A stretch of DNA of 64,000 bases from Candidatus Nomurabacteria bacterium (GTDB taxonomy: Bacteria; Patescibacteriota; Minisyncoccia; Phycocordibacterales; UBA918). Below the pieces are notes generated by a model. It worked only from the letters and a program-made list of their open reading frames with translations. It was not told the origin of the DNA and did no database searches. A program made the position numbers and the translations under genes. The stretch lies in NCBI GenBank assembly GCA_020632035.1, contig JACKGG010000001.1:152985-216984 (forward strand), read 5' to 3'. Position 1 is the first letter of the stretch, and each line of letters begins with the position of its first letter. Positions 472-64,000 of this stretch are shown here, piece by piece.

Positions 472-631
472 ATAATCAATACTTTATCATAGTCCCACAG
501 TTCTGCAGGCGCCTATGAGATGTACTATTTTAAACATGACCCATAGTTACCCAAGTCAACTATTACGAAGTGTGGTTTCTCTGGGTGCGATCATAAATTA
601 ATTGTGCTATATTTCGACACATCTAACTAAC

Positions 632-1801
632 ATGAAAAATAAGGAGCTACAGCACCCTATAATAGTATTATTCTCACTCGTTTCTCTGTCTTCTTTCTTA
701 GGGAAAATGCTTATTTCATACTTGCCGCCGTTCCCGGTTATTTCAGACTCTTTAACATATATAGAAATCGCCAATGGTATTAGAGAAGGAGTCTACTTAT
801 CAATTGATGGAGTTTATTATAGCCCTGGTTATCCATTTTTCTTAAGCCAAATTTTCTCATACTTCGGCAGTGACCCATCCACTGTTTACCAGGTGCAGTT
901 CGCTGTGTTGGGCATAGTGGCTTTTATGGCTTTTCAAATAGCCAGGACTTATTTGAAGATTCCTTTCTATTTGTCACTGATGACAGCCCTGATAGTGATA
1001 CTGTGGCCGTACATGATTTTGTACTCTCTACTTATAATGAGTGCCGTTCCTTATACAGTAGTCTCCTTGATGGCGATATTCATTACCATGAAAGCCCTGT
1101 CGGAAAATAAGCTGAGGTGGTTTGCACTGTCAGGAATAGCTTTTGGTATCGCCGCACTGATGCGTCCGGTGGCATTACTACTACCATTCTGGCTCTTTGG
1201 CACAGGAGTGTTGAGCACTTGGTTCTTCAACTACCGTCTACCCCCAATAAAAAACTTAATCACGAGCTTACTTTTCTTCATTATCATCGTTGCTCCTTGG
1301 TTCACTTTTAAAACAATCCAAATGTATAAAGTGGAGAGTACCACGGCTCAATCGTCACATGTATTTGACAAAGCCTTCATCACGCTAGCATATGAAATTG
1401 ATCGTGACCCTGAAGCTTCAGTATATGCTTCAGATGTAGTGATTTCTAAATTCAAAAATATCTTCCGATTTTGGAACCCAGGAGCCGGTGGTTATCAAGC
1501 CGAACTACTGACTGAAAGTAAGCCGGAGGCCAAGTACTTAATCTCAATATATAAATTTGGTTTCTTTACTTTGTTGGCGTTAGCATTTATCTCTATTCTT
1601 ATAATTCCAAACTATATGTTAGTTGTATTATGGTCTTGTATACTATATGTCTGGATGTTGCACACTGTACTTTTCCCCTACCCACGCTACACTTTACCCA
1701 TAATCCCGCTCATGCTTATATCAGCTGGCTTTGCAGTAGCCAATTGGCGTACTATTATTGAAAATATTAAAAAAATGAAGCTACCAGCTAAACCTTCTTA
1801 A
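632..1801 (+). CDS. Integral membrane glycosyltransferase, PMT_2/ArnT-like (GT39/GT83-like)
   Basis: ORF 602..1801 with probable ATG at 632; about 10 predicted TM helices; PMT_2-like N-terminal region (YLPPFP...DSLTYIEIANGI...YYSPGYPFF); sits next to GtrB-like and GtrA-like genes. Confidence 0.5.
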   Translation: MKNKELQHPIIVLFSLVSLSSFLGKMLISYLPPFPVISDSLTYIEIANGIREGVYLSIDGVYYSPGYPFFLSQIFSYFGSDPSTVYQVQFAVLGIVAFMAFQIARTYLKIPFYLSLMTALIVILWPYMILYSLLIMSAVPYTVVSLMAIFITMKALSENKLRWFALSGIAFGIAALMRPVALLLPFWLFGTGVLSTWFFNYRLPPIKNLITSLLFFIIIVAPWFTFKTIQMYKVESTTAQSSHVFDKAFITLAYEIDRDPEASVYASDVVISKFKNIFRFWNPGAGGYQAELLTESKPEAKYLISIYKFGFFTLLALAFISILIIPNYMLVVLWSCILYVWMLHTVLFPYPRYTLPIIPLMLISAGFAVANWRTIIENIKKMKLPAKPS

Positions 1802-1805
1802 TACC

Positions 1806-2762
1806 ATGAACGATAAACTCACTATTCTAGTCTCAATCCCGGCTAAAAATGAAGCCCTAACAGTTTCTGAAGTAGTGAACGGTTGTCGTCAGGTAATTAG
1901 TGATAAATACCAACTAAAAGCTGACATCCTAGTTATAAGCGACGGTTCGACTGATGATACTGCCCACCGAGCAGAAGTAGCTGGGGCGACAGTCATTAGA
2001 CATGATGTCAGTCGTGGTTTGGGTACCATCTTCCAAGAAGCAGTAGATTACGCCATTGAAAAAAAATACGACCTTATGGTGACCATAGATGGAGACCGGC
2101 AATTCGACGAGACCGAGATACCACTTTTGTTGGACCCCATCATAGATGGTCAGGCTGATTTTTGTTCTGGAAATCGCTTCGCCTCCCAAGACGCTATTCC
2201 TAATATGTCTTCAACCAAACGGATTGGTAATAAAATTGTCGCTCGAATGGTCAACTACATTCTCAACGACAACTACACCGACGTCTCGTGTGGCTACCGA
2301 GCCTACAGCCGAGAAGCTCTCCTCCACTTGAATCTTTTTGGTGGTTTCACCTACACTCAAGAAGTATTTCTAAACCTTGGATTTAAAGGGATCAAAATTA
2401 AAGAAATCCCAATTTCTGTTACTTACTTCCCCGAACGAAAATCACGCATAGCCAGAAGTATTTTTAGATACGGCACACAAGTATTAAAGATAATTCTTAG
2501 TTCCCTCATTTTCTACAAGCCAATGAAGTTCTTCGGTACCCTGGCCATACTTTCTTGGATCTTCGCTATTCCTACGTCAATAATCCTCGGTTTGCGCTAT
2601 TTTGAAACTGGTCTCATTAGCCCATACAAAGCTCTTGGCATAAGTGCTTTAGCTGCTTTTGGTATTGGAGTTATCCTCTTAGCGGTCGGTGTTATACTGT
2701 ATTCACTTAGCAGACAACAACTCAGCATCGATAAGCTCCATTATTATGCAAAAAGACGATAG
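1806..2762 (+). CDS. GT2 polyprenyl-phosphate glycosyltransferase (GtrB/ArnC/DPM1-like)
   Basis: GT-A fold motifs ILVISDGSTDDT and TIDGDRQFD (DxD); two C-terminal TM helices typical of GtrB/ArnC. Confidence 0.7.
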   Translation: MNDKLTILVSIPAKNEALTVSEVVNGCRQVISDKYQLKADILVISDGSTDDTAHRAEVAGATVIRHDVSRGLGTIFQEAVDYAIEKKYDLMVTIDGDRQFDETEIPLLLDPIIDGQADFCSGNRFASQDAIPNMSSTKRIGNKIVARMVNYILNDNYTDVSCGYRAYSREALLHLNLFGGFTYTQEVFLNLGFKGIKIKEIPISVTYFPERKSRIARSIFRYGTQVLKIILSSLIFYKPMKFFGTLAILSWIFAIPTSIILGLRYFETGLISPYKALGISALAAFGIGVILLAVGVILYSLSRQQLSIDKLHYYAKRR

Positions 2763-3360
2763 GCCAGAACATGTGAAGGAATTTGTGGGCAAATACGAAG
2801 ACACCAATCCAATCAGTCGACACTTGGTAGATAATTTTTATAAAAGCATTCAAGATCTTTTACCGAAGGAGACTCTCAACATTCTTGAAGTGGGCTGCGG
2901 AGCGGGCTTTTCCGCCGAGCGTATAATCCCAATGTGTCATCAAGGCTCAACTTACGAAGGATCGGATCTTCTAAGCGACCTCACTAACTTAGCTTCTGAG
3001 CGTAACCCAGGTACTGTCTTCACTCCAGAATCAGTCTATGATTTAAGGAGAGATGATAATAGCTTTAATTTAATCATCGGACTTGAGATGCTAGAACACT
3101 TAGAAGACCCAGAAAAGGCCCTCATGGAAATGAGGAGAGTTTCTAGTCAATACCTATTACTTAGCGTACCGCGAGAACCAATTTGGAGAATTTTAAACAT
3201 GACTCGACTTAAATATTTATCTGATCTTGGTAATACCCCAGGACACCTTAACCACTGGTCAACCAGGACTTTCAAGAAATTTGTCTCTCAAGCTGGCAAA
3301 GTAACGGAAGTTCGAACGCCTCTCCCATGGACTATGGTTTTGGTCGAGCTAGAAAAATAA
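2746..3360 (+). CDS. Class I SAM-dependent methyltransferase
   Basis: ILEVGCGAGFSAE motif I; LIIGLEMLEHLEDP motif; ORF track 2689..3360, ATG at 2746 chosen. Confidence 0.6.
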   Translation: MQKDDRPEHVKEFVGKYEDTNPISRHLVDNFYKSIQDLLPKETLNILEVGCGAGFSAERIIPMCHQGSTYEGSDLLSDLTNLASERNPGTVFTPESVYDLRRDDNSFNLIIGLEMLEHLEDPEKALMEMRRVSSQYLLLSVPREPIWRILNMTRLKYLSDLGNTPGHLNHWSTRTFKKFVSQAGKVTEVRTPLPWTMVLVELEK

Positions 3361-3361
3361 T

Positions 3362-3745
3362 ATGATTATCAAACTATTGAGATATGGTACCGTCACTATT
3401 TTAAGTTACGTTATCTTGATCTTTCTCACCTACCTAGCGGTTGACCTACTACATTTCTCACCGACAATTGCCTACCCAATAGTGCTCACGCTTGTGTATG
3501 CTGGAGTGTACGTTGTTTCTTCCACCTTTGTCTTTAAATCTAACGACCACAAGAGGCAGTCTTACCGCTACGTACTTTCAGTAATAGCTTTTTGGTTACT
3601 CAATGTCGGCTTATATACAGCATTGGTAGAAAAACTTGAACTACAATACTTACTCTCAGTAGTCCTAAACATACTCATCTTCGGCCCACTGCGTTACTTT
3701 GTCTACAGTAAGTTTGTTTTCAATAATACAAAACGTGATTTATGA
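3362..3745 (+). CDS. GtrA-like small membrane protein (polysaccharide synthesis, flippase accessory)
   Basis: 127 aa, 4 TM helices, C-terminal RYFVYSKFVF motif typical of GtrA family; adjacent to GtrB-like GT2. Confidence 0.55.
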   Translation: MIIKLLRYGTVTILSYVILIFLTYLAVDLLHFSPTIAYPIVLTLVYAGVYVVSSTFVFKSNDHKRQSYRYVLSVIAFWLLNVGLYTALVEKLELQYLLSVVLNILIFGPLRYFVYSKFVFNNTKRDL

Positions 3746-5001
3746 ATGCCATTCTCAATACGCTAGAAAAATACCTCAAAACAGACCTTCGCTACATTAT
3801 CGGTGGTGGCTTTTGGCTGACAGCAGGTAAGGTTGTGGCCATGTCGATAGCCTTCATATCATCTGTCGCCTTTGCCAACCTACTACCAGAAGAGACCTAC
3901 GGAACATATCGCTACATAATTTCAATCTTAGTGATTTTGGCCCTGCCCACCTTATCAGGTATTGATACATCAGTGACCAGATCTATTGCACGTGGTTTCG
4001 ATGGTTCGTTTAAATCCGGATTAATAACTAAATCAAAATGGGGAGCACTGGGGGGACTTATGTCTGCCATTATTGCTATCTACTATTATTATCAAGGCAA
4101 TACCATCTTTGGCCACATATTTATTATAAGTACCGTACTGATGCCACTATTAAATGTAAGCTATTTATATCTATCAGTATTAAGTGGAAAGAAGGACTTC
4201 AGGTCCATGTCTCTCCATTTAACTGCATCGAGAATATTTGTGGTCATAGTGATGGTGACTACAATATTTAATACTTCAAATCTGTTTTTTATATTCATCG
4301 CCTACTTCTTCTCTTACTCAAGTACACAAATAATATCAAGTTTAATTGTCTGGCGAAACCAAATCAACAATGATAAGACAGAGCCAGGCGTGACATCGTA
4401 CGGCAAACACTTATCAGTGATGCAAGGAGCGACAGTAATAGCAAATAATATTGATAAAATATTATTATTCCAATTCACTGGCCCAGCCATATTAGCAGGA
4501 TATTACTTGGCGTTGGTACCGTTTAAACAAATAAAAAACTTTTTGTCTGCCTTGAATGTTCTGGCTCTACCCAAGCTATCAAGCCAAAAAGTCTCAGACA
4601 TCAAAGTCAATCTCCCGCCCAAACTAATCAAGTCGTACCTACTAATTGTACCGATTGTACTCTCCTACATTATCTTGGCGCCTTTTTTCTTTAAAATCTT
4701 ATTCCCTAATTACGTTGATTTCGTATTTATATCTCAATTATTTTCTCTGATGTTATTGTTTACTCCCACCACACTATTGAACACTGCCTTGACTGCTTTA
4801 GAGTTCAAAAAACAACTATATATAGTGTCTACTTCAACAGCTATTCTTCGGGTGCTTCTCTTATTAATAGCAGTTCCTTTATGGGGTTTAACGGGTGCAG
4901 TTAGTGTGGTCATTATTTCTCAGACTTATACCGCTATTTGTTTAGTATTCTTGTTCTGGAAAATAGAACCGCCTGAACCAACTGGAGCTGTATTACAGTA
5001 A
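3742..5001 (+). CDS. Polysaccharide/oligosaccharide flippase (MOP/Wzx-like)
   Basis: 419 aa polytopic membrane protein (about 12 TM), located in glycan locus; start overlaps GtrA-like stop by 4 nt. Confidence 0.5.
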   Translation: MNAILNTLEKYLKTDLRYIIGGGFWLTAGKVVAMSIAFISSVAFANLLPEETYGTYRYIISILVILALPTLSGIDTSVTRSIARGFDGSFKSGLITKSKWGALGGLMSAIIAIYYYYQGNTIFGHIFIISTVLMPLLNVSYLYLSVLSGKKDFRSMSLHLTASRIFVVIVMVTTIFNTSNLFFIFIAYFFSYSSTQIISSLIVWRNQINNDKTEPGVTSYGKHLSVMQGATVIANNIDKILLFQFTGPAILAGYYLALVPFKQIKNFLSALNVLALPKLSSQKVSDIKVNLPPKLIKSYLLIVPIVLSYIILAPFFFKILFPNYVDFVFISQLFSLMLLFTPTTLLNTALTALEFKKQLYIVSTSTAILRVLLLLIAVPLWGLTGAVSVVIISQTYTAICLVFLFWKIEPPEPTGAVLQ

Positions 5002-5177
5002 CGGACATCCACTTCAGTTAATAACAACGTATCTAAACAATCACTTTACCACAATAGACGACTTTTCCTGGCTCAATATAGTTTAATGATCAGACAGTCA
5101 ATCACATTAGTATTCCCCTTTATTTTATTACCTTTTCTAGTACAATACAGATTATAAACTGCAACTCTTGACTAAAT

Positions 5178-6167
5178 ATGCACCAAAAACAGAAACGAAT
5201 TTTAGTAGTAGACCCAATACATATAGATGCAGTTAACAAACTTGAGGAAAGTGGTTTTTTAGTAGACATAAACCTTTTTCCTAAATTAGAATCCTTACCG
5301 AAGCTGGTCTCTAACTATAACGCTCTGATATGTCGTACAAACACTAAACTCTCTGGTGATTTCTTTAAAAATGCAAATCATCTAGATTGTGTAGCCTTAG
5401 CGTCAACCGGTTATGACCAGATAGATATTGAGAGCGCTAAGAAATACAAAGTACCAATTCTGGGACTTCCGTCTACCAACAAAGATATAGATGTGTATAG
5501 ACACGGTAACTTCATATCAACCGCAGAACATACAATACTTTTGATTTTGGCAGCTCTTGGTAATTTCCATAGCGCCAGCGTTAGTATGAAAGCTGGTAAG
5601 TGGGATAAGCCAAATTTTATAGGCAGCGAAGCGTACGGAAAAACACTAGGCTTTATTGGTTTCGGGAGAATAGCTAAGCTGGTTGCAGTTAGAGCGAGGG
5701 CCTTTGGAATGCAAACAATCGCTTATGATCCCCATGTCTTTAGAGACGAGATGAGTGAACATAATACAGAGAAAATGACTCTGGAAGATTTGTGTAGGCA
5801 GTCAGATATAATTACCATACATGCACCAAAAACACCTGAGACCGTATCATTACTGGATAAGAAGTGCTTCGACTCAATGAAGAAAGGGGTTATATTAATA
5901 AATACAGCTAGAGCAGAGATTATTAACAAAGAAGCGCTAATTGAAGCTCTTGAAAATGAGAAAGTTGCTCGAGTAGCACTCGATGTGTTCGTGAACGAAC
6001 CCTATGACATAGAATGGGATTTGGTTAAGGATGATAGAATAATACCCACCCCTCATATTGGAGGTTCAACTACTGAAGCCATGAGAAGAATATCTTTGAG
6101 TACAGCCGAAAGTATCATTAATTTCTTACAGCACGGAAACGACGTTAATCTAATAAATAAATTCTAA
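5178..6167 (+). CDS. D-isomer-specific 2-hydroxyacid dehydrogenase (glycerate/phosphoglycerate dehydrogenase-like)
   Basis: NAD-binding GFIGFGRIAKLVAVRA, catalytic-domain motifs HAPKTPET...LINTARAEII...PHIGGST. Confidence 0.65.
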   Translation: MHQKQKRILVVDPIHIDAVNKLEESGFLVDINLFPKLESLPKLVSNYNALICRTNTKLSGDFFKNANHLDCVALASTGYDQIDIESAKKYKVPILGLPSTNKDIDVYRHGNFISTAEHTILLILAALGNFHSASVSMKAGKWDKPNFIGSEAYGKTLGFIGFGRIAKLVAVRARAFGMQTIAYDPHVFRDEMSEHNTEKMTLEDLCRQSDIITIHAPKTPETVSLLDKKCFDSMKKGVILINTARAEIINKEALIEALENEKVARVALDVFVNEPYDIEWDLVKDDRIIPTPHIGGSTTEAMRRISLSTAESIINFLQHGNDVNLINKF

Positions 6168-6168
6168 A

Positions 6169-6891
6169 ATGAAAGCAGTAATATTAGCTGGTGGACAAAG
6201 TAAACGTCTGCACCCAATGACAATTAATGAGCCCAAATGTTTACTTGAGTTTGAAGGAAGGACTATGCTTTCTAGATATTTGGACCTATTAGAAGCGGAA
6301 AAAATTGATACAACTTTTGTTGTCACCGGCTTCAATCATGAGGCTGTGAAGACTGAAATTAATTCAGTCAAGCGAGAAATGAATATTGAAACTATCCTTA
6401 ACACAGACTTTGAAAAAGAAGACAATCATCCTATACATGGCTTCTTTTTAACTAAGAATTATTTAGACGATGATTTCCTGCTACTAAACTCTGATATATA
6501 TTTCACCCAAGATACTTTAGATAAACTTATAAAAAATAAAAATAGTTGTGTGGCAGTTGATTCACAATCTTTATTTATACCGGGTGAGATGTTTGTAAAT
6601 TACGATTCCAATATGATTGTAAGCGATATATCCAAATCTCTACAACAGCGCTCTTCTGGACAAGGAAAGAGCGTCCAGGTTGTAAAGATTCTAAAAGAAG
6701 ATAGCGATGCCTTGTTTGAAAGAGTCGAAGAGTTATGTGGCCAGAAAAATGCTTTCTACCCAGCCCAAGCATATGACGTTCTTATTAAAAAAGATAAATT
6801 CTTTGCTTTTGATATAAATGGAGAATTTTCACACGAATTGGATACAGTAGAGGACTATCATTCTCTACGGGAACACTTAGACAATAAATAG
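6169..6891 (+). CDS. Sugar/alcohol-phosphate cytidylyl(nucleotidyl)transferase, LicC/IspD-like
   Basis: N-terminal MKAVILAGGQSKRLHPMT...PKCLL signature of NTP_transferase family (resembles LicC CTP:phosphocholine cytidylyltransferase N-terminus). Confidence 0.55.
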   Translation: MKAVILAGGQSKRLHPMTINEPKCLLEFEGRTMLSRYLDLLEAEKIDTTFVVTGFNHEAVKTEINSVKREMNIETILNTDFEKEDNHPIHGFFLTKNYLDDDFLLLNSDIYFTQDTLDKLIKNKNSCVAVDSQSLFIPGEMFVNYDSNMIVSDISKSLQQRSSGQGKSVQVVKILKEDSDALFERVEELCGQKNAFYPAQAYDVLIKKDKFFAFDINGEFSHELDTVEDYHSLREHLDNK

Positions 6892-6937
6892 GACAATATC
6901 TACCTATCTTAGTTAGTTTTGATAAAATTCAATACTT

Positions 6938-8068
6938 ATGTATAAACTAAGACTAATTTTATTACACACCTTACATAAACTACTATCTGTCTTCCCAAGA
7001 AGTAACAAAACCTGGGCATTTATTGGATGGAACCGCACTCCGGACGGTGAGATATTTACTGACAACACTAAATATCTCTACTTGTACGTTCTGGAACATC
7101 AACTAGAAATAAAGCCCGTATGGCTTGCCAAAAGTAGAGATGATGCTAAAAAAATGCGCTCTATGGGCATGAAATCCTACTACCAATTTTCATTAACAGG
7201 TATCTTCTACGCCTTACACGCAGGAGTAACGATCATAGATGCTAATCTCCATGATTGGAATTTTGTTTATGTTGGACGCAGTAAACTAGTACAATTACTA
7301 CACGGAAAAGGCATGAAGGCCCAAGGCTATAGTAAACCAGGATTGAGAGACCATGACTTGATTTGCTACCCTTCTGCTGGTGTTCAATCTATGATATCTG
7401 GAGCCTTTGCACAAAATGCAATAAAAAAAATAACTGGTTACCCTAGAAGCGATATAGTTATGGGCGAGGAATATCAGTATTCCTCATTTGGAGTTGATGA
7501 TAAAACAAAAGATTTAATCAGTGAACTTAAGCGAAAAGAAACCAAGATCATTTGGTATGCTCCTACTTTCCGTCGAGGTCAACAGTTTTTTGACGTAGAT
7601 AAAATATTGAATCTGTCAAAACTAACCCCTCAGTTAAAACAAAAAAACTATCATCTGCTTATTTCACTCCACCCAAAGTATAGTAGCCAAAATAGTACCA
7701 TTAGTAATTCCAATGTCAGTTTTTTGCCTGCTCAGGATTTCTTTCCACTTTATCAATACATTGATCTACTGATCACTGACTACTCTTCGAGTTTTACGGA
7801 TTTTCTTCTTCTAGACAGACCGATCATATTTTACCCATATGATCTTGATGAGTACTGTAAGAATGAAGGCATTCTGATTGATTACAACTCTGAAACTCCA
7901 GGACCTAAGGCTTATACTCCCGAAGAATTACATACTACTATATCTAACCAACTTACTGACGATACTCATAAAGAAGAAAGACTGTTGGCAAAAAATAAAT
8001 ATCACGACTTTACTGACACCGACAATGCTGAGAGAGTTTTTAATAGTATAACTAAAGAGCTGCTTTAG
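6938..8068 (+). CDS. CDP-alcohol (CDP-glycerol-type) phosphotransferase, TagB/TagF-like
   Basis: Glyphos_transf-like motifs IIWYAPTFR, HPKY, ITDYSS, IFYPYDLDEY. Confidence 0.6.
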   Translation: MYKLRLILLHTLHKLLSVFPRSNKTWAFIGWNRTPDGEIFTDNTKYLYLYVLEHQLEIKPVWLAKSRDDAKKMRSMGMKSYYQFSLTGIFYALHAGVTIIDANLHDWNFVYVGRSKLVQLLHGKGMKAQGYSKPGLRDHDLICYPSAGVQSMISGAFAQNAIKKITGYPRSDIVMGEEYQYSSFGVDDKTKDLISELKRKETKIIWYAPTFRRGQQFFDVDKILNLSKLTPQLKQKNYHLLISLHPKYSSQNSTISNSNVSFLPAQDFFPLYQYIDLLITDYSSSFTDFLLLDRPIIFYPYDLDEYCKNEGILIDYNSETPGPKAYTPEELHTTISNQLTDDTHKEERLLAKNKYHDFTDTDNAERVFNSITKELL

Positions 8069-8077
8069 ATTTATTGT

Positions 8078-9217
8078 CTACAACTCTGTTTTTGAAACAC
8101 TCCTCAAGACAAGATCGGTGAACTTCTCTCCGTATTTATCTACACTGTATTCAAGAGATGTTTTGACTGATGCCTGTTTAAACTTAAGTAATTCTTCTTC
8201 GGATAAACTGACAACCTCGCCCATCTTTTCAGCGAGACTTTCGGGAGTTTTATCAGCAAAATAACCATTTTCTCCATCTATCAAGTACTCAGACACCCCT
8301 GCTACTCGAGTAGATATTAGTGGCGCACCAAAAGCCAAACCTTCCATAGCGGCTATGCAAAAACCTTCATGATCAGATGACAGCAAAGTGAAGTCGCTCA
8401 TTAGGTAATATTTTTTAATGTCAGTGCGGGCAGATAAAAGAATGACTTTATCTTCAATCTTATTCTCAGTGATCACCTTTTCAATGTCAGGCTTAAGGAG
8501 GCCGTCACCAATTATTAATAGCTTGGAATCTGGGTGTTTTTTTAGAAATAGTGCAAAAGCTTTTACCATTCTTACATGGTTTTTTTGTTTTACTAGCCGA
8601 CCTACCGTAAAAAATAAGTTTTCATTTTCTTTTATTCCATATTCCCTTCGATATTTTTCCCTCTCACCGGCATGTGTAATTTTAAATGCCTCGATTGCCT
8701 TAACATCTACGCCGTTATGAATAACTGTAAATCTATCAATCGGAATATTTTCTGTTTTTGACAAATGCTCAGCCACCATATTGGAATCAACAATAGTTGT
8801 GTAAGAGAGTGTATTAAGTGACTTATTTATAAATCTCTGTAATTTACCTTTTCCGTCATTTGTGTTGTGCTCGGCTGTAATAACTTTGAAACCTAAAAAA
8901 GGTTTAAGAACCCTTACGATTGTGTTACTAAGAAACAAAGAAGATTTAACTATATCTGGCTTAAATTCTCTAATAATTGAAATTAGCTGGAGCCAACTCT
9001 TGAAATCTTTAAGACCGTGGAAATTTAATTTCTCCACCCTTACACCCTCTGGTAATAAATCGTAAAAATTATTCTGATCTGACTGAGTCAGCACTATAAG
9101 CAATATTTCGAATTTGTCTTTGTCCAAAGTTTGCACCTGGTCTAGAGCCAATTTCTGAACACCCCCTACGGCAAAGCTATTCTCTACAATGGCCAGTTTA
9201 ATTTTATTCTGGCTCAT
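8078..9217 (-). CDS. Glycosyltransferase family 4
   Basis: GT-B fold; C-terminal EX7E region EGFCIAAMEGLAFGAPLISTRVAGVSE. Confidence 0.7.
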   Translation of the reverse strand: MSQNKIKLAIVENSFAVGGVQKLALDQVQTLDKDKFEILLIVLTQSDQNNFYDLLPEGVRVEKLNFHGLKDFKSWLQLISIIREFKPDIVKSSLFLSNTIVRVLKPFLGFKVITAEHNTNDGKGKLQRFINKSLNTLSYTTIVDSNMVAEHLSKTENIPIDRFTVIHNGVDVKAIEAFKITHAGEREKYRREYGIKENENLFFTVGRLVKQKNHVRMVKAFALFLKKHPDSKLLIIGDGLLKPDIEKVITENKIEDKVILLSARTDIKKYYLMSDFTLLSSDHEGFCIAAMEGLAFGAPLISTRVAGVSEYLIDGENGYFADKTPESLAEKMGEVVSLSEEELLKFKQASVKTSLEYSVDKYGEKFTDLVLRSVSKTEL

Positions 9218-10160
9218 AGCTACTAATGGTATTTTCTAGACCTTCCTCAAAACTAACCTTAGGTGACCAATCCAGCTCATCTTTTATTTTTGAAGTATTC
9301 ATAGAGTATCTAAAATCATGTCCAAGCCTATCTTCGACGTATGATATGCTGGTTTCGTCTTTGTCAAAACTTTTTAGTAACTCTAAGGTTAATTCGTAAT
9401 TTGTCATCTCTAGTCCACCTCCCACATTGTATATTTCACCATTATGACCATTTTCAAACACAGCATTAATGCCACTAATACAGTCTTCCACGTATAACCA
9501 CTCTCTGATTTGCTCACCTTTCCCATACAAGTTAACCTTCTCTCCTTTTTGCAAAAGGCCGATAAATCTTGGAATCAACTTGGAAGCATCTTGATTTGGT
9601 CCAAATGTATTACTAGATCTTGTAATAACTGTGTTTAAGCCAAAAGTCTCATGGTAAGAATTAACCAACATTTCTGCTCCTGCTTTTGAGGCACTATATG
9701 GATTACGTGGATTTAATAAATCTTTTTCTGTAAATGATTCTCCTGTCTTATCTAATGACCCATAGACTTCATCAGTTGATATTTGATGGAATCTTTTCAA
9801 ATCATACTCAATAGAAAAGAACAATAAATTATTTGTACCTAAGATGTTTGTTTCGATGAAGATATTAGGATCTTTCAGACTAAGGTCTACATGACTCTCA
9901 GCAGCAAAATTTATTATTGCATCAGGTTTGAATTCTTCAAAAAGACTTTTGATTTTTGATTTATCTCTTATATCAACTTTACAAAAAAAATAATTGTCTT
10001 CATTAGAGACTCTTACATTATCCAGGTTTCCAGCATATGTCAGAGCATCAATATTCACAAAAAGTGTCTCGGGATTTAGTAAGACATATTTATTAAGATA
10101 ATTACTACCTATAAATCCTGCTCCACCCGTGACAAAGATTGTTTTTTTGTGGTCAATCAT
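9204..10160 (-). CDS. rfbB: dTDP-glucose 4,6-dehydratase
   Basis: FVTGGAGFIGSNY Rossmann motif, HQISTDEVYG and YSASKAGAEML (YxxxK) typical of RmlB. Confidence 0.7.
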   Translation of the reverse strand: MIDHKKTIFVTGGAGFIGSNYLNKYVLLNPETLFVNIDALTYAGNLDNVRVSNEDNYFFCKVDIRDKSKIKSLFEEFKPDAIINFAAESHVDLSLKDPNIFIETNILGTNNLLFFSIEYDLKRFHQISTDEVYGSLDKTGESFTEKDLLNPRNPYSASKAGAEMLVNSYHETFGLNTVITRSSNTFGPNQDASKLIPRFIGLLQKGEKVNLYGKGEQIREWLYVEDCISGINAVFENGHNGEIYNVGGGLEMTNYELTLELLKSFDKDETSISYVEDRLGHDFRYSMNTSKIKDELDWSPKVSFEEGLENTISSYEPE

Positions 10161-10163
10161 ACT

Positions 10164-10928
10164 TTATTTTTTATCTTTTGAATTTTTCAAATTTCGTATA
10201 AATATTGATGCGTCCAAAAGACTATCAAAAGTACCAGTATCAAACCATTCCTTTTCTAAGAAGACTCCTTCTAGAGTTCCTTCTTTAACATACAGGTTAT
10301 TTATTGAAGTTATTTCGTATTCACCTCTGTCAGATTTATGTTGACCGATTGTTTTTTGCACAACAGAGTTGTCATACATATATAAACCAGTGACCGCATA
10401 GTTTGTTTTAGGTTTTTTTGGCTTTTCTTCTATTGAAAGTATTTTCCCTGACTCATTTATTTCGGCTACACCAAAACGTTCTGGATCTTGAACTTCCTTT
10501 AGAAACACTCTCGCCCCACCATTAAATGTGTCGACATAAGGTTTTATATTGTCCATGAAAATATTATCTCCAAGATGAAATAGGCAGGAGTCATTACCAA
10601 TGAAACCTCTAGCCATAGCAAGATTATGTCCAATCCCTAGTGGTTCATTTTGTATCGCGTAGACTATTTGTATTTGATGTCCGGTATTGATAGATATAAA
10701 ATCTTTACCTGAGCCAAGTAGTTTGACGTAATCATTTATATGGTGAGGGTTTGTGACAATGAGTATTTCATCTATACCGGCTTCTACTAAAGTGTGAATT
10801 CCATAATATATAACTGGCTTATCATAAACTGATAAAAGATGCTTGTTCGTGGCTGTTGTTAGTGGAGCAAGTCGTGTCCCTTCCCCGCCGGCTGCTATTA
10901 TTCCTTTCATATAATTGTTTAAAACCAA
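10164..10928 (-). CDS. rfbA: Glucose-1-phosphate thymidylyltransferase-like sugar nucleotidyltransferase
   Basis: MKGIIAAGGEGTRLAPLTTATNKHLL N-terminal nucleotidyltransferase signature; adjacent to rfbB. Confidence 0.6.
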   Translation of the reverse strand: MVLNNYMKGIIAAGGEGTRLAPLTTATNKHLLSVYDKPVIYYGIHTLVEAGIDEILIVTNPHHINDYVKLLGSGKDFISINTGHQIQIVYAIQNEPLGIGHNLAMARGFIGNDSCLFHLGDNIFMDNIKPYVDTFNGGARVFLKEVQDPERFGVAEINESGKILSIEEKPKKPKTNYAVTGLYMYDNSVVQKTIGQHKSDRGEYEITSINNLYVKEGTLEGVFLEKEWFDTGTFDSLLDASIFIRNLKNSKDKK

Positions 10929-11580: not shown

Positions 11581-12195
11581 TTATTTATTGATCAAGATAC
11601 TTTGAATATCTAAATCACTAGTCTTAAGGTAATCCACGTTGCTAGATTTTACCACGCCGACTACTCTGCTTAAATTATCGTGCATATTAGTCTTCCAAGA
11701 CTCAAACATGTCCTTTCCTGACTCCATTCTGACATGATCTGGGTTATATCTGTTTTTTAATACTTCAATGTGATCAACATGCACAAGAGCGCTTCCTACC
11801 GGACCCATAGTCAATAATTTTTTTATAGTTTGTTCAGAATGAACATCTGCAGAATATGAGAGAAATCTTTGAACCAGACCTTCGTCTACCACTACATACT
11901 TTTGGGTAGATTTTTTTGCATCATCTATCTTTTTTAGAGATGAAAAAAAGATAGACAGATCATATTTAAAAATTTTCCAATTTTTATTTTTTTGGTAGTT
12001 TTTGAAGATTAATAAAAACCAAGAATAAACCACAAATGGGTATTTTATTGTTAAAGGGAACAATTTGAACTTATTTTGGTCGTGAGGAATAATTTCGAAG
12101 TTGTATTCTTCTTTAAGTTTTTCAGAAAAGGTAGTCTTCCCTACTCCGGGAAGGCCATACAACTCGACGATAACCTTACTTTTTTCTGGCGACAT
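11581..12195 (-). CDS. P-loop NTPase, small-molecule/nucleoside kinase-like
   Basis: Walker A LYGLPGVGKTTFSEKL; ORF track 11581..12219, internal ATG (MSPEKSK) preferred. Confidence 0.4.
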   Translation of the reverse strand: MSPEKSKVIVELYGLPGVGKTTFSEKLKEEYNFEIIPHDQNKFKLFPLTIKYPFVVYSWFLLIFKNYQKNKNWKIFKYDLSIFFSSLKKIDDAKKSTQKYVVVDEGLVQRFLSYSADVHSEQTIKKLLTMGPVGSALVHVDHIEVLKNRYNPDHVRMESGKDMFESWKTNMHDNLSRVVGVVKSSNVDYLKTSDLDIQSILINK

Positions 12196-13579
12196 AGATG
12201 TAGCTTTCGGTAAAAGCATTATTAATAAACGGCAAAGTAATCACCCCATTAGTAGCTACGTGTATATTGTGTAGGAGTTTTGAAACCGTTCGGCCTAAGG
12301 CGTACTTGGTCTTGATTCTAGAGACAGCACTAAGATTAGTCTCTACTTTAAAACCTGTTTGTTTAAGCAGAGAAATCATTTCTTCCTTGCTTATTTGACC
12401 CTTATGCAGGTCTTTCTTCTGAGTTTCTTTGGTTCTAGAATGTTCGGGATTCTTGGTAACAATTACTAATTTACCTCCATCATTAAGTAAGTCATAAAAC
12501 TTTTTTACCACCGCTGGCTTATCCTCAAAGTATTCAAAACATCTGATACCACAAATCAAATCAAATTTTGCGTCACTTGAAAAGCGCTCTATATCGCTAT
12601 GGACATAAGAAATCTTATTGTTTTCTGGGAACCGCTTTTTTGCTCGTTTAAGCATTTCTTCAGATTGATCTAAAAGAGTAATCTTTTCAGTGTGAGGAAT
12701 AATCAAATCTGTCCATACCGCATCGCCAGGACCAATTTCTAGAGTCTGTCTAGCCTGCACCCCCCGCAAGGCTCTCTCAATCACCTTCTTTGTCTGATGA
12801 TAATCAAACTCTCTTGGTTTGCTAGAAAACCAACGTGCAGTCTTGTAGTCTTCTGGATTATTTCTTAGAAAATCATTGTAATACTCTTCAGCAAATTCAT
12901 TCTCCACGTTTGGTTTCTTTTCCAAATCGATAAAATACCGATAGGGATCAAACACGACATGTCGTCTTTTTGTAATGTTGAAAAATTTCGACACCACTCC
13001 CTCTACCACTTTCTTTGTAGTGACGGTATCAATTTCCCAGTAATGTTGCTGTGAAAACTCAAAGCCTAAAAACTTTATTGGTTTTTTAATTATAAAGTGA
13101 ATCCACGGTCTTTTAAGCAGGGTTCTAATATAAGGAAACTTTATTAAAACTTCAAAAGCTACATTTCTGTATGGCAGTGAGATAAACACCTTGCCCTTAC
13201 TAATCCTAGATAACTCTTTTAAAGCAACTGGGAAGTCTTCAAATGGTAGATGCTCCAAAACCTCAAACACTGCCACCGCATCGAAAGATTCGTCCTCACA
13301 GGGCATGTTCCTCACGTCAGCTACTATGTCAGGCTTTAAATCTGGATCAATGTCACAGATAGTCACGTTTATACCCAACACTTCTTTCAAGTAATAAGGG
13401 ACCAATCCGTCTCCAGGACCGACCAAAAGAATGTTTTTAACTCCAGCATCACGTAAAGTTACAATCTGATGTTGATAGGAAATAAAACGTTCTACGGTAG
13501 AATATTTTGGTTGTCGATAGTAATCATGCTTTACCTGAATCTTTGATCGTGTGTCATTTGCGTCTGTCATATCATTCAT
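12176..13579 (-). CDS. Tandem double SAM-dependent methyltransferase (two class I MTase domains)
   Basis: Two separate motif I regions: ILLVGPGDGLVPYYL (N-domain) and TLEIGPGDAVWTDLI (C-domain), each followed by acidic loop/motif II. Confidence 0.55.
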   Translation of the reverse strand: MNDMTDANDTRSKIQVKHDYYRQPKYSTVERFISYQHQIVTLRDAGVKNILLVGPGDGLVPYYLKEVLGINVTICDIDPDLKPDIVADVRNMPCEDESFDAVAVFEVLEHLPFEDFPVALKELSRISKGKVFISLPYRNVAFEVLIKFPYIRTLLKRPWIHFIIKKPIKFLGFEFSQQHYWEIDTVTTKKVVEGVVSKFFNITKRRHVVFDPYRYFIDLEKKPNVENEFAEEYYNDFLRNNPEDYKTARWFSSKPREFDYHQTKKVIERALRGVQARQTLEIGPGDAVWTDLIIPHTEKITLLDQSEEMLKRAKKRFPENNKISYVHSDIERFSSDAKFDLICGIRCFEYFEDKPAVVKKFYDLLNDGGKLVIVTKNPEHSRTKETQKKDLHKGQISKEEMISLLKQTGFKVETNLSAVSRIKTKYALGRTVSKLLHNIHVATNGVITLPFINNAFTESYIYVARKK

Positions 13580-13608: not shown

Positions 13609-14463
13609 TTATTTTTCATCCGGCATTACTTCTAGGCCGTACACCTCTCTGACCAAATCAATATTCTTCTTACTCGCTAATAACAACTCGATATTTTTTG
13701 CTTCTAGTGCTTTTAGTACCGCTAAACCTTCTTCATCCATCTCAAGCAAGGATTCATAATGATGACGAAAGGCTGCCATGTCTTTGATGAAGCAGTTTCC
13801 ACCAGCTCCCCTACCTCCCTTATGTACTGGGTCGTTATAATACGGAGACATCATTACATCACTATCCATCATGTTTTTTATTGGTTCCCAATCAGCTCCC
13901 ACGTGAGTGGCCATTTCGTATAATAAATTCGCTAAAATAATGCGAAAGTAACCTTGTATATTATGTGCGTACTTTTGAATCTCAGCTTGTTCTGCTGTCA
14001 CGACAAAATTATGTTCTGAGTGGGGCAAAACACCCATTACTTTTTCTGCGGCCTTCTTTTGCTCTTCTATATCTTGGGTATAGCCAACCACATTCATGAT
14101 TGGATTAGCAGCATCAAAGACGGCCGTTTTTTCAGCCAAGAATTCTGGAGAAAATAAGATTGTTTTAGTTGGAAATTTTTCTTGTAGTTGGCGGGTTGAG
14201 CCTGGCAAGATAGTGGACTTAATCACTACTACCGCCCTATCGGCTACTAAATCTATAACCGACTCAACTATGCCAATATTAGGCCCGGCTGGACCAGTAG
14301 GAGTTGGTACGGCAATAAAAACAATCTCACAATCAGCAATCTTGGTGGCATTATCTTTGTATTCTGGTTCGAGTGCATAACGTACTACTTCATAGCCACG
14401 ATTTTCAAAATCATCACTCATGTTTTTACCCACAAACCCTTGTCCGATATACCCGATTTTCAT
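13609..14463 (-). CDS. NAD-binding dehydrogenase, UDP-glucose/GDP-mannose dehydrogenase N-domain-like
   Basis: MKIGYIGQGFVGKNM Rossmann fold, EIVFIAVPTP motif; only 284 aa so assignment tentative. Confidence 0.35.
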   Translation of the reverse strand: MKIGYIGQGFVGKNMSDDFENRGYEVVRYALEPEYKDNATKIADCEIVFIAVPTPTGPAGPNIGIVESVIDLVADRAVVVIKSTILPGSTRQLQEKFPTKTILFSPEFLAEKTAVFDAANPIMNVVGYTQDIEEQKKAAEKVMGVLPHSEHNFVVTAEQAEIQKYAHNIQGYFRIILANLLYEMATHVGADWEPIKNMMDSDVMMSPYYNDPVHKGGRGAGGNCFIKDMAAFRHHYESLLEMDEEGLAVLKALEAKNIELLLASKKNIDLVREVYGLEVMPDEK

Positions 14464-20177: not shown

Positions 20178-20708
20178 TCATAATGCTTCTATAATAGCAT
20201 CTACTTCCTTGAGGGAATGAACGATAAAAACATCTTTTAATGGTTCAGCTTCTGGTCTAGCTGAAGAATCACGTACCATCAAACAACAAAAGACATTCGG
20301 GCAGGCTGATTTTACTGATAGGCATTGTTCTATTTTGTCATCTACAAATACTACAGTTTCGTCAGGCGAAAATTGTTGAACAGTCTCCGCCACGCTATTC
20401 CCCTTCAAGCCTTCCATGAAAATAATTTCATTTACAAGTTCATCGAATTTGCCGCTCTGTAACTTTGCTTTTTGATAATCTGAAGCTTGTGATCCGTATC
20501 TTGGCGTACTAGCCGTCAAGATAAATAGATCTTTAATATCCTTAGTATTGAGCCATGATAATACATCTTCATATAAAAAATCTCGAGAATTGTATTTTTC
20601 CCAAACTTCTGGAATAGTGGCAAAACCCCCTATCCTATCCTTATCGATAAATTCATAACAAGTCTTTGTATCAAGAAGTGTCCGGTCAAAATCTAAAATA
20701 TACTTCAT
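20178..20708 (-). CDS. HAD-superfamily hydrolase/phosphatase-like
   Basis: N-terminal DFDRTLLDT (DxD motif I of HAD fold); small 176 aa. Confidence 0.4.
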   Translation of the reverse strand: MKYILDFDRTLLDTKTCYEFIDKDRIGGFATIPEVWEKYNSRDFLYEDVLSWLNTKDIKDLFILTASTPRYGSQASDYQKAKLQSGKFDELVNEIIFMEGLKGNSVAETVQQFSPDETVVFVDDKIEQCLSVKSACPNVFCCLMVRDSSARPEAEPLKDVFIVHSLKEVDAIIEAL

Positions 20709-21700
20709 AAAATTTCCATAAGTTTTTTAGCCAACTTATCTGGATCGTGCCTAATTAGGCTTCTTTTAAGCAAATCTCCTTTTGTAGTTTGGACCGATTC
20801 GGTAGCCAGTAAATCTAGCTGGATCAGCTTACAATCTGCTTTATTTTCACCTAATTTAACAGGAAATTCACTATCTTCTCTATATTTTTTTAGCAAATCT
20901 TCAGGGAGTGCCGTGCAATTCACTAGTGTAAAATCTGGGCAACGTCCTATGTACTTAGATATTTCTACAACGTGATCATCCGCTGTCATTCTGTCGGTCT
21001 GACCCAACTTGGTCATCAAGTTACACACATAAACTACTTTGGCTTTTGCATCTCTGATTGCTTCACTGACTCCATCTACTACGCAGTTAGCTAAGACACT
21101 TGTGTATAAATCACCAGGACCCAACACAATCAAATCGGCTTTAGCTAAAGTCTGACTAGCTGAATCAGTGATCTTTGCTCTTGGAGATAGTGATAATTCA
21201 ATAATCCGACTTTCTGCCCGTGAAGCATCGGGTTCGTCGATGGCGTGTTCTCCGACCAGCTCAACTCCATCTTCGTACTTTGCTACCAAGTCGGCTTTAG
21301 CAATGGTAACCGGTTCCACTTTTCCTTCGATACGGAGAATTTTACCTGCGGCTTTGATGGCCAAGTCTTCAGAGCCAAGGATGTCGGTGAGAGCTACCAG
21401 CAGTAGGTTGCCAAAATTGTGCCCAGACAAACCTTCGCCTTTATTAAAACGATACAAAAATAATTCCCGCATCAGCTCTTCGTTTTTGTCGATATCGCTC
21501 GCTAGAGCAGTGAGAGCCATGCGCACATCCCCGACCGGCAAATAACCAAACTCATCACGGAGGCGACCAGTCGAGCCGCCTGAGTCGGCCATAGTAACGA
21601 CCGCTGAGATATCTATCTGTGCCTGATAGTGTTTGAGTCCCCGTAGTACCGTGTGGGTCCCAGTTCCACCTCCTATTACCACTACTTTCTTTTTATCCAT
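20705..21700 (-). CDS. YvcK/CofD-family protein (UPF0052, gluconeogenesis factor / 2-phospho-L-lactate transferase-like)
   Basis: VVVIGGGTGTHTVLRGLK...VVTMADSGGSTGRLRDEFGYLPVGDVR signature of CofD/YvcK family. Confidence 0.65.
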   Translation of the reverse strand: MDKKKVVVIGGGTGTHTVLRGLKHYQAQIDISAVVTMADSGGSTGRLRDEFGYLPVGDVRMALTALASDIDKNEELMRELFLYRFNKGEGLSGHNFGNLLLVALTDILGSEDLAIKAAGKILRIEGKVEPVTIAKADLVAKYEDGVELVGEHAIDEPDASRAESRIIELSLSPRAKITDSASQTLAKADLIVLGPGDLYTSVLANCVVDGVSEAIRDAKAKVVYVCNLMTKLGQTDRMTADDHVVEISKYIGRCPDFTLVNCTALPEDLLKKYREDSEFPVKLGENKADCKLIQLDLLATESVQTTKGDLLKRSLIRHDPDKLAKKLMEIL

Positions 21701-23801: not shown

Positions 23802-25238
23802 TTATCTCTTTTCGTTACTTTTTGGCTTAACGTAGACAGAAACCGTGCCGAGCAGTAAGACTCCGGCCAAAGCTAGGTATGTCCATCTATCGTCTGTATT
23901 TGTTTTTGCAGAAGCGTTGTTGGCGAGCTGTCCAGCCGGACTTATTTCTTCTCTTACCACTTCGACAACATCATCAACTACTTCACTTCCAGCCACTTCT
24001 TTGGGGCCAAGAGATGCAAAACTAAAATTAGAGTCTGGCTGAATGGCTATAGGCCTAGAGACAGAAATAGCGCTTATCTGCGGGACAGGTTTGGAAGCGG
24101 TTGAAGCGACAGTTGGACTATAGGAAAAACTGGTTGGAGCAATTGAACTAAGTAATATGCCTTCGGTATCATAGAGTGTCACCATAGAATTGGGTTTTTT
24201 ATCTAGTCTTGCTTTGGCGATAGTTATGGTTTGGTTGGGTAATATAATTGAACGGGGTGGAAATTCAAAAACACTTCCTCCACGCAATCGATAGTTAGAA
24301 ATATCAATCTCATAAGGGGAATCATTGTTTACCTGCACGTCTCCATTTTTATTTGTTGTCAGTGAAATCGCTACCGGTAAAATGGTTATTTCGTGCCTGG
24401 TGACTTGTTCCTGGCGTTTAAAGCCTGCGTAAGCGGTAACAACGTAAGTACCTGGGTAACTAAAAATATGAGTTGGTTCTTTTTGGTCTGAGGTTAATCC
24501 GTCTCCAAAGTTCCATTCGTACTGGAGTGAATCGATGAGAGTGTCACCGATTCCACTTGGTTTTACTGAAAACGAAATCGGTTGATTTACATAACCCAAA
24601 CTTTGCGCATCGACCACTAATTTTAAGCTTACATCTGGCAGGATGAGTCTGACTGTTTCCGCTGAAGAAGACTTGGTTTTTCTTGTACTTACGGTTGAGG
24701 TTTTCTTAAGGTCTTCTTGGTTTAAGGTTTCAGTGTCATCATCTTCTGATGTATCTTCTTCGACAGTCCAGTTTAAGCCTGCCCCCGGAGTTGGAGCAGC
24801 CGTCACCCACCCACTGCTTGTGTACTGAGCAGTTTCCTTAGTCGCATTATCTCCACCAATACTTTCCCAATCAGTTCCCCCGCTCACTTGGTCCACCAAA
24901 GAGCCGTCGCTCCTTGTTAATCTCAAGGTTGCCCCGGTATTTACTAGAGCTCCGGTATAAACTAAAAAGGCTGTTCCGGGTGCTGAGTCTTCACTTGTGC
25001 GCTCTAGTACGGCGTATGAATTCTGAGAAATAGTTCCCGTTAGATCAATCGATAAATTTACGCCATCACTCAGAGTCCACCCAGAGACATCTTGTGCCGA
25101 TCCATCGTTGTGTAACTCGATCCATTCATGATTGGCAGAAGCGGAAGAACCCATCCAGGCAACCTCGCTGATCGATACCGCTGCTTGGGCAGAATAAGGT
25201 AATAATAAACTAATTAGACTAAGTAAACACCACTTCAT
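23802..25238 (-). CDS. Secreted, C-terminally membrane-anchored protein with lamin-tail (LTD) and PKD domains
   Basis: Signal peptide MKWCLLSLISLLLPYSAQA; LTD-like WIELHNDGSAQDVSGWTLSDG; PKD-like YEWNFGDGLTSDQKEPTHIFSYPGTYVVTAYA; C-terminal TM helix + KPKSNEKR. Confidence 0.6.
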   Translation of the reverse strand: MKWCLLSLISLLLPYSAQAAVSISEVAWMGSSASANHEWIELHNDGSAQDVSGWTLSDGVNLSIDLTGTISQNSYAVLERTSEDSAPGTAFLVYTGALVNTGATLRLTRSDGSLVDQVSGGTDWESIGGDNATKETAQYTSSGWVTAAPTPGAGLNWTVEEDTSEDDDTETLNQEDLKKTSTVSTRKTKSSSAETVRLILPDVSLKLVVDAQSLGYVNQPISFSVKPSGIGDTLIDSLQYEWNFGDGLTSDQKEPTHIFSYPGTYVVTAYAGFKRQEQVTRHEITILPVAISLTTNKNGDVQVNNDSPYEIDISNYRLRGGSVFEFPPRSIILPNQTITIAKARLDKKPNSMVTLYDTEGILLSSIAPTSFSYSPTVASTASKPVPQISAISVSRPIAIQPDSNFSFASLGPKEVAGSEVVDDVVEVVREEISPAGQLANNASAKTNTDDRWTYLALAGVLLLGTVSVYVKPKSNEKR

Positions 25239-41772: not shown

Positions 41773-41773
41773 G

Positions 41774-43087: not shown

Positions 43088-44545
<1,458 letters not shown>

Positions 44546-63789: not shown

Positions 63790-64000
<211 letters not shown>

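Follow-up and report, generated by a model that had tools for sequence, protein, structure and literature searches.

A 64,000-nucleotide stretch of a Candidatus Nomurabacteria genome (contig JACKGG010000001.1; hereafter, the window) carries three collinear open reading frames (ORFs) for a dehydrogenase (ORF1), a cytidylyltransferase (ORF2) and a TagF-like protein (ORF3). These genes probably make up one module of a cell-surface glycan locus, by which a phospho-alcohol activated with cytidine diphosphate (CDP) would be made and then moved to the surface glycan. The three genes are as follows:

ORF1, positions 5178 to 6167, forward strand: D-2-hydroxyacid-dehydrogenase-family enzyme of the nicotinamide adenine dinucleotide (NAD) type, 329 amino acids (Pfam 2-Hacid_dh and 2-Hacid_dh_C)
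ORF2, positions 6169 to 6891, forward strand: cytidine triphosphate (CTP):phospho-alcohol cytidylyltransferase of the LicC/PntC/IPCT type, 240 amino acids (Pfam NTP_transf_3 and NTP_transferase)
ORF3, positions 6938 to 8068, forward strand: TagF-family (CDP-alcohol) phosphotransferase, single-domain and of TagB/TarF size, 376 amino acids (Glyphos_transf, PF04464)

The spacing is 1 nucleotide between ORF1 and ORF2, and 46 nucleotides between ORF2 and ORF3. By its Rfam matches the window is bacterial, and the ORF2 product is 100% identical to an NCBI protein named from 'Candidatus Nomurabacteria bacterium'. These coordinates matched exactly those of the original prediction, which had placed three collinear forward-strand genes at positions 5178–8068, and its three family assignments (2-hydroxyacid dehydrogenase, LicC-like cytidylyltransferase and TagF-like protein) were borne out.

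According to the scheme proposed here, the NAD-type dehydrogenase, a derivative of 3-phosphoglycerate dehydrogenase (PGDH), would first act on a phosphorylated C3 keto compound, reducing it to the corresponding phospho-alcohol. The LicC/PntC/IPCT-type enzyme would then join this phospho-alcohol with CTP to give CDP-X, from which the TagF-family enzyme, with its catalytic residues in place, would move X-phosphate onto a hydroxyl of a lipid-linked oligosaccharide at the cytoplasmic face. The oligosaccharide would thereby gain one anionic group in phosphodiester linkage, or a few in a short chain, and the decorated unit would be exported by the adjoining Wzx-type flippase. That the outcome is a teichoic-acid-like or phospho-substituted glycan, as had been predicted, remains an inference.

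The conservation of the module was surveyed by fetching the sequence neighbourhoods of cytidylyltransferase and dehydrogenase homologues; the dehydrogenase-clade loci read were L003–L006, L088, L089/L090 and L091. The order dehydrogenase, cytidylyltransferase, TagF-like gene was kept in every such locus (L003–L006, L089/L090 and L091), with ORF1 sharing 61% identity with the dehydrogenases of L003–L005, 57–58% with that of L006, 45–46% with those of L089/L090 and 47% with that of L091; over all related loci examined, the identity was 45–67%. One lineage encodes the first two enzymes as a fusion protein of 564–574 amino acids (P0055, P0057, P0060 and P0061), and at L088 the TagF-like gene lies directly 3' of the fusion. 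Further, seven dehydrogenase homologues are listed with a longest contig of the same size as that of cytidylyltransferase homologues. The adjacency of the three genes is not due to chance, and the trio is one unit. From the fusion of the first two enzymes, the dehydrogenase would be expected to feed the cytidylyltransferase; in the characterized PntC-AEPT fusion, the partner of the cytidylyltransferase makes its substrate. When 1.84 billion representative proteins were searched exhaustively with HMMER, the dehydrogenase clade comprised only six clusters, scoring 266–348 bits; below them came a gap, and the next scores, at most 226 bits, belonged to ordinary type I PGDHs. All named members of the clade belong to the Patescibacteria.

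The dehydrogenases of the window and of L088 are 53–54% identical, whereas their cytidylyltransferases (6169–6891 in the window and 9000–9722 in L088) share only 28% identity. The cytidylyltransferases associated with the dehydrogenase clade did not cluster together in a neighbour-joining tree of cytidylyltransferase domains, which was rough and poorly resolved and gave no sister group. A scan of genome contigs with the cytidylyltransferase profile returned only relatives of 36% identity or less, none with the dehydrogenase nearby. The cytidylyltransferase either evolves much faster than the dehydrogenase or was exchanged.

Two observations concern individual loci of the survey. In L004, which stems from a metagenome assembly, the TagF-like gene (8736–9886) is split into ORFs of 292 and 53 amino acids, whereas in the otherwise near-identical contig of L003 (8736–9938) it is intact and encodes 400 amino acids; the split could reflect a frameshift, a pseudogene, strain variation or an assembly error. 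The same glycan locus of L003 also encodes, on the reverse strand (3897–6023), a 708-amino-acid fusion in which a GFO_IDH_MocA oxidoreductase is joined to a further and unrelated 2-hydroxyacid dehydrogenase domain; beside it lies a gene that resembles CMP-sugar synthetases (CTP_transf_3).

The assignment of ORF2 was examined at the level of both sequence and fold. Its product matched Pfam NTP_transf_3 (1.5e-13) and NTP_transferase (6.4e-12). When the profile of the ORF2 (CYTIDYLYLTRANSFERASE) family, A1, with 22 members, was compared with the PDB, it matched PntC (6pd1, 1.4e-31, positions 2–236), LicC (1jyk, 1.5e-29, positions 2–238) and IPCT (2xme, 1e-15, positions 1–233) over the full length, whereas sugar-1-phosphate enzymes matched only in the N-terminal nucleotide-binding part, to about position 150. 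An AlphaFold2 (AF2) model of ORF2, with a predicted local distance difference test (pLDDT) score of 94.4, likewise gave PntC, IPCT and LicC as its top Foldseek matches. Thus, the profile comparison by which the original prediction had hoped to tell the nucleotidyltransferase subfamilies apart placed the enzyme in the LicC/PntC/IPCT type, and not among the hexose-1-phosphate nucleotidyltransferases, the class that it had set against its own reading; on these matches, hexose-1-phosphate is a disfavoured substrate for ORF2.

As regards individual residues, G9, R13, P22 and K23 of the nucleotide-binding signature, which reads G-x-S-K-R instead of G-x-G-T-R in ORF2, and the metal-binding D109 are invariant in the ORF2 family and common to LicC and PntC. 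The sites of the acidic amine ligands differ. These are E104 and E196 in PntC and D105 and D192 in LicC; in ORF2, the first column holds an invariant N107 and the second A199, the alignment being less certain at the latter. Because ORF2 lacks these acidic ligands, choline phosphate and aminoethylphosphonate would both be disfavoured as substrates. Choline phosphate was one of the candidates put forward earlier and is to that extent set aside, while the accompanying view that the substrate cannot be told from sequence has stood. K167 of the motif QGKS was also considered as a charge switch that marks the substrate, and was dropped, as LicC has Arg and the fused cytidylyltransferases have Glu at this position.

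Because the phosphonate-specific PntC heads the PDB matches of the cytidylyltransferase family, a phosphonate route was also considered. Here, the dehydrogenase would convert phosphonopyruvate to phosphonolactate, and the PntC-like enzyme would make a cytidine monophosphate (CMP)-phosphonate to be moved to the glycan. PGDH homologues do reduce phosphonopyruvate to phosphonolactate in valinophos biosynthesis. However, the amine ligands of PntC are not kept in ORF2, neither a phosphoenolpyruvate (PEP) mutase gene nor lic genes lie nearby, and the PEP-mutase motif (EDKx5NS) was absent from the whole window and from all eight triad loci that were scanned, so that this route was rejected as highly improbable. 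The same scan was positive near distant PntC-type relatives (L030, L042, L043, L072 and L078).

Regarding the third gene, ORF3 matched Glyphos_transf (PF04464) at 1.3e-50 and 172.9 bits (cut-off 22.1), and the profile of its family, A3, matched TarL (5e-36) and TagF (1.5e-24) in the PDB, as well as Bcs3 and Cps3D. The catalytic histidines, whose absence would have spoken against a TagF-like enzyme, are both present: H122 (QLLHGKGMK) aligns with H444 of Staphylococcus epidermidis TagF (QTWHGTPLK) and H245 (LISLHPKY) with H584, the column in which the H584A mutant entry 3l7m shows Ala. Both residues are invariant in the six-member alignment of A3. None of the NCBIfam equivalog cut-offs was reached by ORF3, which scored 89 bits with TarF (cut-off 550), 64 bits with TarL (1000) and 51 bits with TarB (500). 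The closest relative found outside the candidate phyla radiation (CPR) is the TagF-like protein of L037, with 30% identity and 152 bits.

The best structural-sequence matches of ORF3, TarL and TagF, are polymerases, which raises the question of whether ORF3 polymerizes X-phosphate into a genuine teichoic-acid-like chain, instead of placing one substituent on a repeat unit. Machinery of the PMT_2/GT2/GtrA kind, which is encoded in this locus, glycosylates teichoic acids outside the membrane in Firmicutes. Nevertheless, a polymerase seems rather unlikely. With 376 amino acids, ORF3 has the size of the primase and single-addition enzymes TagB and TarF, the latter giving the best of the NCBIfam scores, and the locus has a Wzx-type flippase and many glycosyltransferases of family 4 (GT4), with no ABC exporter of the TagGH type seen in its annotated part.

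The dehydrogenase, ORF1, matched 2-Hacid_dh_C (PF02826) at 2e-54 and 184.1 bits (cut-off 25.1) and 2-Hacid_dh (PF00389) at 3e-20 and 72.7 bits (cut-off 24.6). Its closest relatives by sequence are genuine PGDHs, including about 40% identity to type I PGDHs, and its best PDB sequence matches are PGDHs as well; against the PGDH equivalog TIGR01327 of NCBIfam it scored 289.8 bits, below the cut-off of 454 bits. The AF2 model (pLDDT 93.8) superposes on human PHGDH (2g76) with template-modelling scores of 0.88/0.96 and a root-mean-square deviation of 1.6 Å at about 34% identity, and ORF1 has neither an ACT nor an ASB domain.

The alignment columns of 23 clade members and nine canonical PGDHs were then compared and read against published contacts of PHGDH and SerA. 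The catalytic triad of the 2-hydroxyacid dehydrogenase (2HADH) family (R245/E274/H293) and the NAD-type D184 are retained in ORF1 and in 21–23 of the 23 members. In human PHGDH, the residues that touch the substrate analogue are R53, S54, R74, T77, Q291, R235, H282 and A285, and for SerA the rule for phosphate recognition is at least two cationic residues plus a stabilizing Gln. Four of the eight contacts (R53, T77, R235 and H282) are retained in the clade, R53 being the phosphate-binding Arg of the β3-α3 loop; K144, a Lys contributed by the partner subunit, is kept as well (23/23). The other four are altered, namely S54 to Thr (23/23), R74 of β4-α4 to Leu, Ile or Val (23/23), Q291 of α5, the Gln that props R53 in PGDH, to Trp, Leu or Met (20/23), and A285 to Gly (23/23). 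In addition, 20 of the 23 members have Ala or Ser in place of the conserved Gly that follows the catalytic Arg. ORF1 itself differs from PGDH by S54T, R74L, G76S, G246A, Ala to G296 and Gln to M302. Two further Arg residues are new in the clade, R303 (19/23) and R304 (23/23). Finally, the clade has a conserved 10-residue insert, at 99–108 of ORF1, in the β5-αA specificity loop, with N101, I104 and D105 conserved; the AF2 model shows it as an ordered loop (pLDDT above 90). ORF1 is, on these residues, a 2HADH and a PGDH derivative, and not a bona fide SerA. As the pocket is still cationic, its substrate is likely to be anionic and phosphorylated.

That ORF1 might nevertheless be the housekeeping SerA of the serine pathway, lying beside glycan genes by chance, could be argued from its identity to type I PGDHs and from the name 'D-3-phosphoglycerate dehydrogenase' that the Joint Genome Institute gives to its homologues. 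Against this stand the cytidylyltransferase and TagF-like neighbours in all loci read, the fusions found in some of them, the score below the equivalog cut-off, and the loss of R74 throughout the clade and of Q291 in 20 of its 23 members, which leave a chance placement very improbable. The closest comparison is the short, type III form of SerA, which shares with ORF1 the fold, the Arg/Glu/His triad, the NAD-type Asp, the β3-α3 Arg and the partner-subunit Lys. ORF1 differs from it in lacking the β4-α4 Arg and the α5 Gln, in the replaced Gly after the catalytic Arg and in the added insert and R304, and the genomic context of its clade is always glycan biosynthesis.

Concerning the unit that is transferred, we tentatively prefer, by analogy, a reduction of dihydroxyacetone phosphate (DHAP) that would yield glycerol phosphate. 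The analogy comes from distant relatives of the cytidylyltransferase, which adjoin TagF-like genes plus non-homologous, triose-acting dehydrogenases. The block of L065 (Fusobacterium sp. SB021; 4967–7522) comprises an Fe-ADH_2 enzyme, a nucleotidyltransferase and a HAD protein, and that of L054 (Sarcina) includes Fe-ADH_2 and HAD genes; in L037 (a Gastranaerophilales metagenome-assembled genome) and in L021 and L040 (Planctomycetes), the partner is a GpsA-like glycerol-3-phosphate dehydrogenase. The L037 module, with its GpsA-like enzyme, is also the source of the closest non-CPR relative of ORF3. This variety of dehydrogenases looks like replacement within one functional slot and would favour a C3 unit of the glycerol type derived from DHAP. 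Within the 64-kb window, a homology search found no homologue of GpsA, TagD, Fe-ADH_2 or HAD; a DHAP route would make sense if these reduced genomes lacked GpsA and TagD.

Among these comparison loci, L037 encodes a LicC-like nucleotidyltransferase fused to a HAD domain (6001–7509), followed by the GpsA-like dehydrogenase (7521–8549), and the blocks of L037 and L065 both adjoin TagF-like and flippase genes. The two blocks are probably CDP-glycerol-type supply modules outside streptococci.

Several points weigh against the scheme and, in particular, against DHAP as the starting compound. We know of no member of the D-2-hydroxyacid dehydrogenase family that reduces DHAP, and the family normally requires the carboxylate of a 2-oxo acid. 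ORF1 keeps the carboxylate-binding R245 and has a strongly cationic pocket (R53, K144', R303 and R304); the retained and added Arg residues would fit an acid, or a diphosphate or diphosphate-linked substrate, at least as well. Moreover, the divergent cytidylyltransferases that accompany the dehydrogenase clade may not all share one substrate. Lastly, a scan for promoters and terminators gave no signal above shuffled background, and an operon was neither supported nor delimited by it.

The same residues bear on whether the unit is instead a phosphorylated hydroxy acid, that is, a C3 acid of the phosphoglycerate or hydroxypyruvate type or a slightly longer phospho-2-hydroxy acid. The dehydrogenase would then interconvert the oxo and hydroxy forms, the cytidylyltransferase would produce a CDP-acid, for example CDP-glycerate, and a doubly anionic group would be added by the TagF-like enzyme. 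This reading ranks second to glycerol phosphate and is possible, if somewhat doubtful. The nearest relatives of ORF1, by sequence and by fold, are genuine PGDHs; ORF1 keeps the triad, the phosphate-binding Arg and the partner Lys and gains R303 and R304, so that its pocket is highly cationic, and ORF2 no longer has the acidic side chains that hold cationic head groups. However, four of the eight PGDH substrate contacts are altered and the PGDH equivalog cut-off is missed. The candidate acids also raise difficulties: 3-phosphoglycerate and 2-phosphoglycerate are central metabolites and, since no dehydrogenase is needed to supply them, are unlikely to explain one that is strictly conserved and sometimes fused, while 3-phosphohydroxypyruvate would be an odd and labile substituent. 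In addition, the analogous modules of other phyla use triose or glycerol dehydrogenases and, to our knowledge, no TagF-family enzyme has a CDP-acid as donor.

The order of the first two steps could also be reversed, as in the pneumococcal CDP-arabinitol pathway, in which AbpA acts before AbpB. The cytidylyltransferase would in that case activate the phospho-keto compound, and the dehydrogenase would reduce the CDP-linked intermediate. The dehydrogenase-cytidylyltransferase fusion fits either order, and the lost phosphate-clamping Arg and Gln, the 10-residue loop and the two new Arg residues of ORF1 could accommodate and bind a CMP-diphosphate moiety. The argument is, however, solely a reading of substitutions, and the PntC-AEPT precedent points to a fused partner that acts before the cytidylyltransferase; we regard the reversed order as unlikely and provisionally retain reduction before activation, with glycerol phosphate as the preferred unit.

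The genes around the module correspond to the GtrA/GtrB/flippase glycan context that had been claimed for it. Upstream of ORF1 they are:

Positions 602 to 1801, forward strand: PMT_2-type GT-C glycosyltransferase (Pfam/NCBIfam)
Positions 1806 to 2762, forward strand: glycosyltransferase of family 2 (GT2), polyprenyl-phosphate-sugar synthase-like (best NCBIfam matches AglJ, PpgS and dolichyl-phosphate hexose transferase)
Positions about 2689 to 3360, forward strand: methyltransferase (Pfam/NCBIfam)
Positions 3362 to 3745, forward strand: GtrA-like protein (Pfam/NCBIfam)
Positions 3742 to 5001, forward strand: Wzx-type (Polysacc_synt) flippase (Pfam PF01943, 2.7e-12), directly upstream of ORF1

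On the other side of the module lies:

Positions 8078 to 10928, reverse strand: region annotated with Pfam and NCBIfam, with RmlB at 382.6 bits on TIGR01181 (cut-off 365)

The PMT_2-type, GT2 and GtrA-like genes (602–3745) are a three-component set for extracytoplasmic glycosylation, and the flippase is likely the exporter of the decorated lipid-linked unit. On the opposite strand, 3' of ORF3, a GT4 enzyme, RmlB and an RmlA-like enzyme are followed by a long series of methyltransferases and GT4 enzymes. Similar surroundings were observed in the related loci. In L003, L006, L088, L089 and L091, no more than a few genes separate the triad from a flippase; a convergent GT4 gene lies 3' of the TagF-like gene in L006 (with a NUDIX gene between them), L088 and L091; and the PMT_2 and GT2 pair adjoins the triad in L088 and L089, joined by GtrA in L088. 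The usual flanks of the module are therefore a Wzx-type flippase and a convergent GT4 gene, often with the PMT_2/GT2(/GtrA) set.

Other genes of the glycan region and beyond were also recorded. Between methyltransferase genes, a 212-amino-acid ORF (11581–12219, reverse strand) has weak P-loop or kinase-like matches (AAA_17, dNK and 'putative kinase') and may act as a kinase on sugars or small molecules; in L001, L003 and L006, its place is taken by an unannotated ORF of about the same length. A nucleotide-sugar dehydrogenase homologue of 284 amino acids (13609–14463, reverse strand), also called in L001, has part of the N-terminal and the central domain, with no C-terminal domain detected, and may be truncated or degenerate. 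Within the run of glycosyltransferases, the CofD-family protein at 20705–21700 (reverse strand) is the UDP-N-acetylglucosamine-binding YvcK (TIGR01826, 295 bits, cut-off 196) and not an F420 enzyme; as an ordinary YvcK, it was ruled out as a user of a nucleotide-activated hydroxy acid. Immediately beyond the glycan genes, three reverse-strand genes encode a protein with Lamin-tail and PKD domains (23802–25238), a TrwB/VirD4-like coupling ATPase (25242–27425) and a YkuD L,D-transpeptidase fused to a D-Ala-D-Ala carboxypeptidase (27444–28949). The rRNA genes of the window are unlinked: the 16S gene (43085–44544, reverse strand) is followed by tRNA-Ile(GAT) (41773–41846), and the 3' end of the 23S gene (63800–64000, reverse strand) and the 5S gene (63123–63230) lie on the same strand about 18.5 kb away, with protein-coding ORFs between.

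The Patescibacteria (CPR) are abundant, mostly uncultured episymbionts whose surface chemistry is essentially unknown, and a recent genomic description suggested that they have rhamnose polysaccharides in place of teichoic acids. From the module, one would predict for one CPR lineage that a rhamnose-related glycan with heavy methylation carries an anionic group in phosphodiester linkage, which would give direct, testable access to the charge of the envelope, to attachment to the host and to recognition by phages. The module would also represent the recruitment of an enzyme of central metabolism, PGDH, to the supply of a glycan precursor through defined changes, namely the four altered contacts, the inserted loop and the fusion with the enzyme that acts next. 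Were the unit an acid, the interest would be higher: a CDP-activated phospho-hydroxy acid (CDP-glycerate or a related C3/C4 acid) would be a donor class not known for any TagF-family enzyme, and a doubly anionic, teichoic-acid-like decoration would arise from a glycolytic intermediate via a repurposed enzyme of the serine pathway. Literature searches on this gene combination, and on teichoic acids or GpsA in CPR, returned nothing specific.

Compared with known systems, the preferred scheme shares its design with TarI/TarJ/TarL and with Bcs1/Bcs3 of Haemophilus influenzae, which likewise reduce a phospho-keto compound, activate the product with CTP and transfer it by means of a TagF-family enzyme. 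Bcs1 is a reductase-cytidylyltransferase fusion, as are the four fused proteins of the related lineage, and ORF3 has both TarL and Bcs3 among its best matches in the PDB. The enzymes of the first two steps differ, however. TarJ belongs to the medium-chain alcohol dehydrogenases and TarI resembles IspD, whereas the reductase of the module is a PGDH-derived 2HADH and its cytidylyltransferase is LicC/PntC/IPCT-like. The TagD/TagF pathway has the same design too, with the reductase slot of the module taken by a different protein fold.

In pneumococcal capsule loci of serotypes 15 and 23, the genes are ordered wchX-gtp1-gtp2-gtp3 and specify a CDP-2-glycerol pathway with WchX as transferase; a flippase, a TagF-like phosphotransferase, a dehydrogenase and a LicC-like nucleotidyltransferase stand there in one block next to rml genes, as in the window. 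L065 and L054 have the same layout as Gtp1-3/WchX, a link drawn from gene order and annotation only. The HAD protein (Gtp3 slot) and the Fe-ADH_2 enzyme (Gtp1 slot) of these two loci, with slots assigned from the synteny of L065 and L054 and the published gene order, have no homologue in the window, which has the 2HADH instead. The idea that Gtp1 itself might be a 2HADH was not supported, since loci with a Gtp-like layout carry Fe-ADH_2. Taken together, the reductase slot of CDP-alcohol pathways shows non-homologous replacement by 2HADH, GpsA-like and Fe-ADH_2 enzymes. While the overall design of the module is known, what is new is its PGDH-derived reductase, the fusion of this enzyme to a LicC-type cytidylyltransferase and its apparent restriction to the Patescibacteria.

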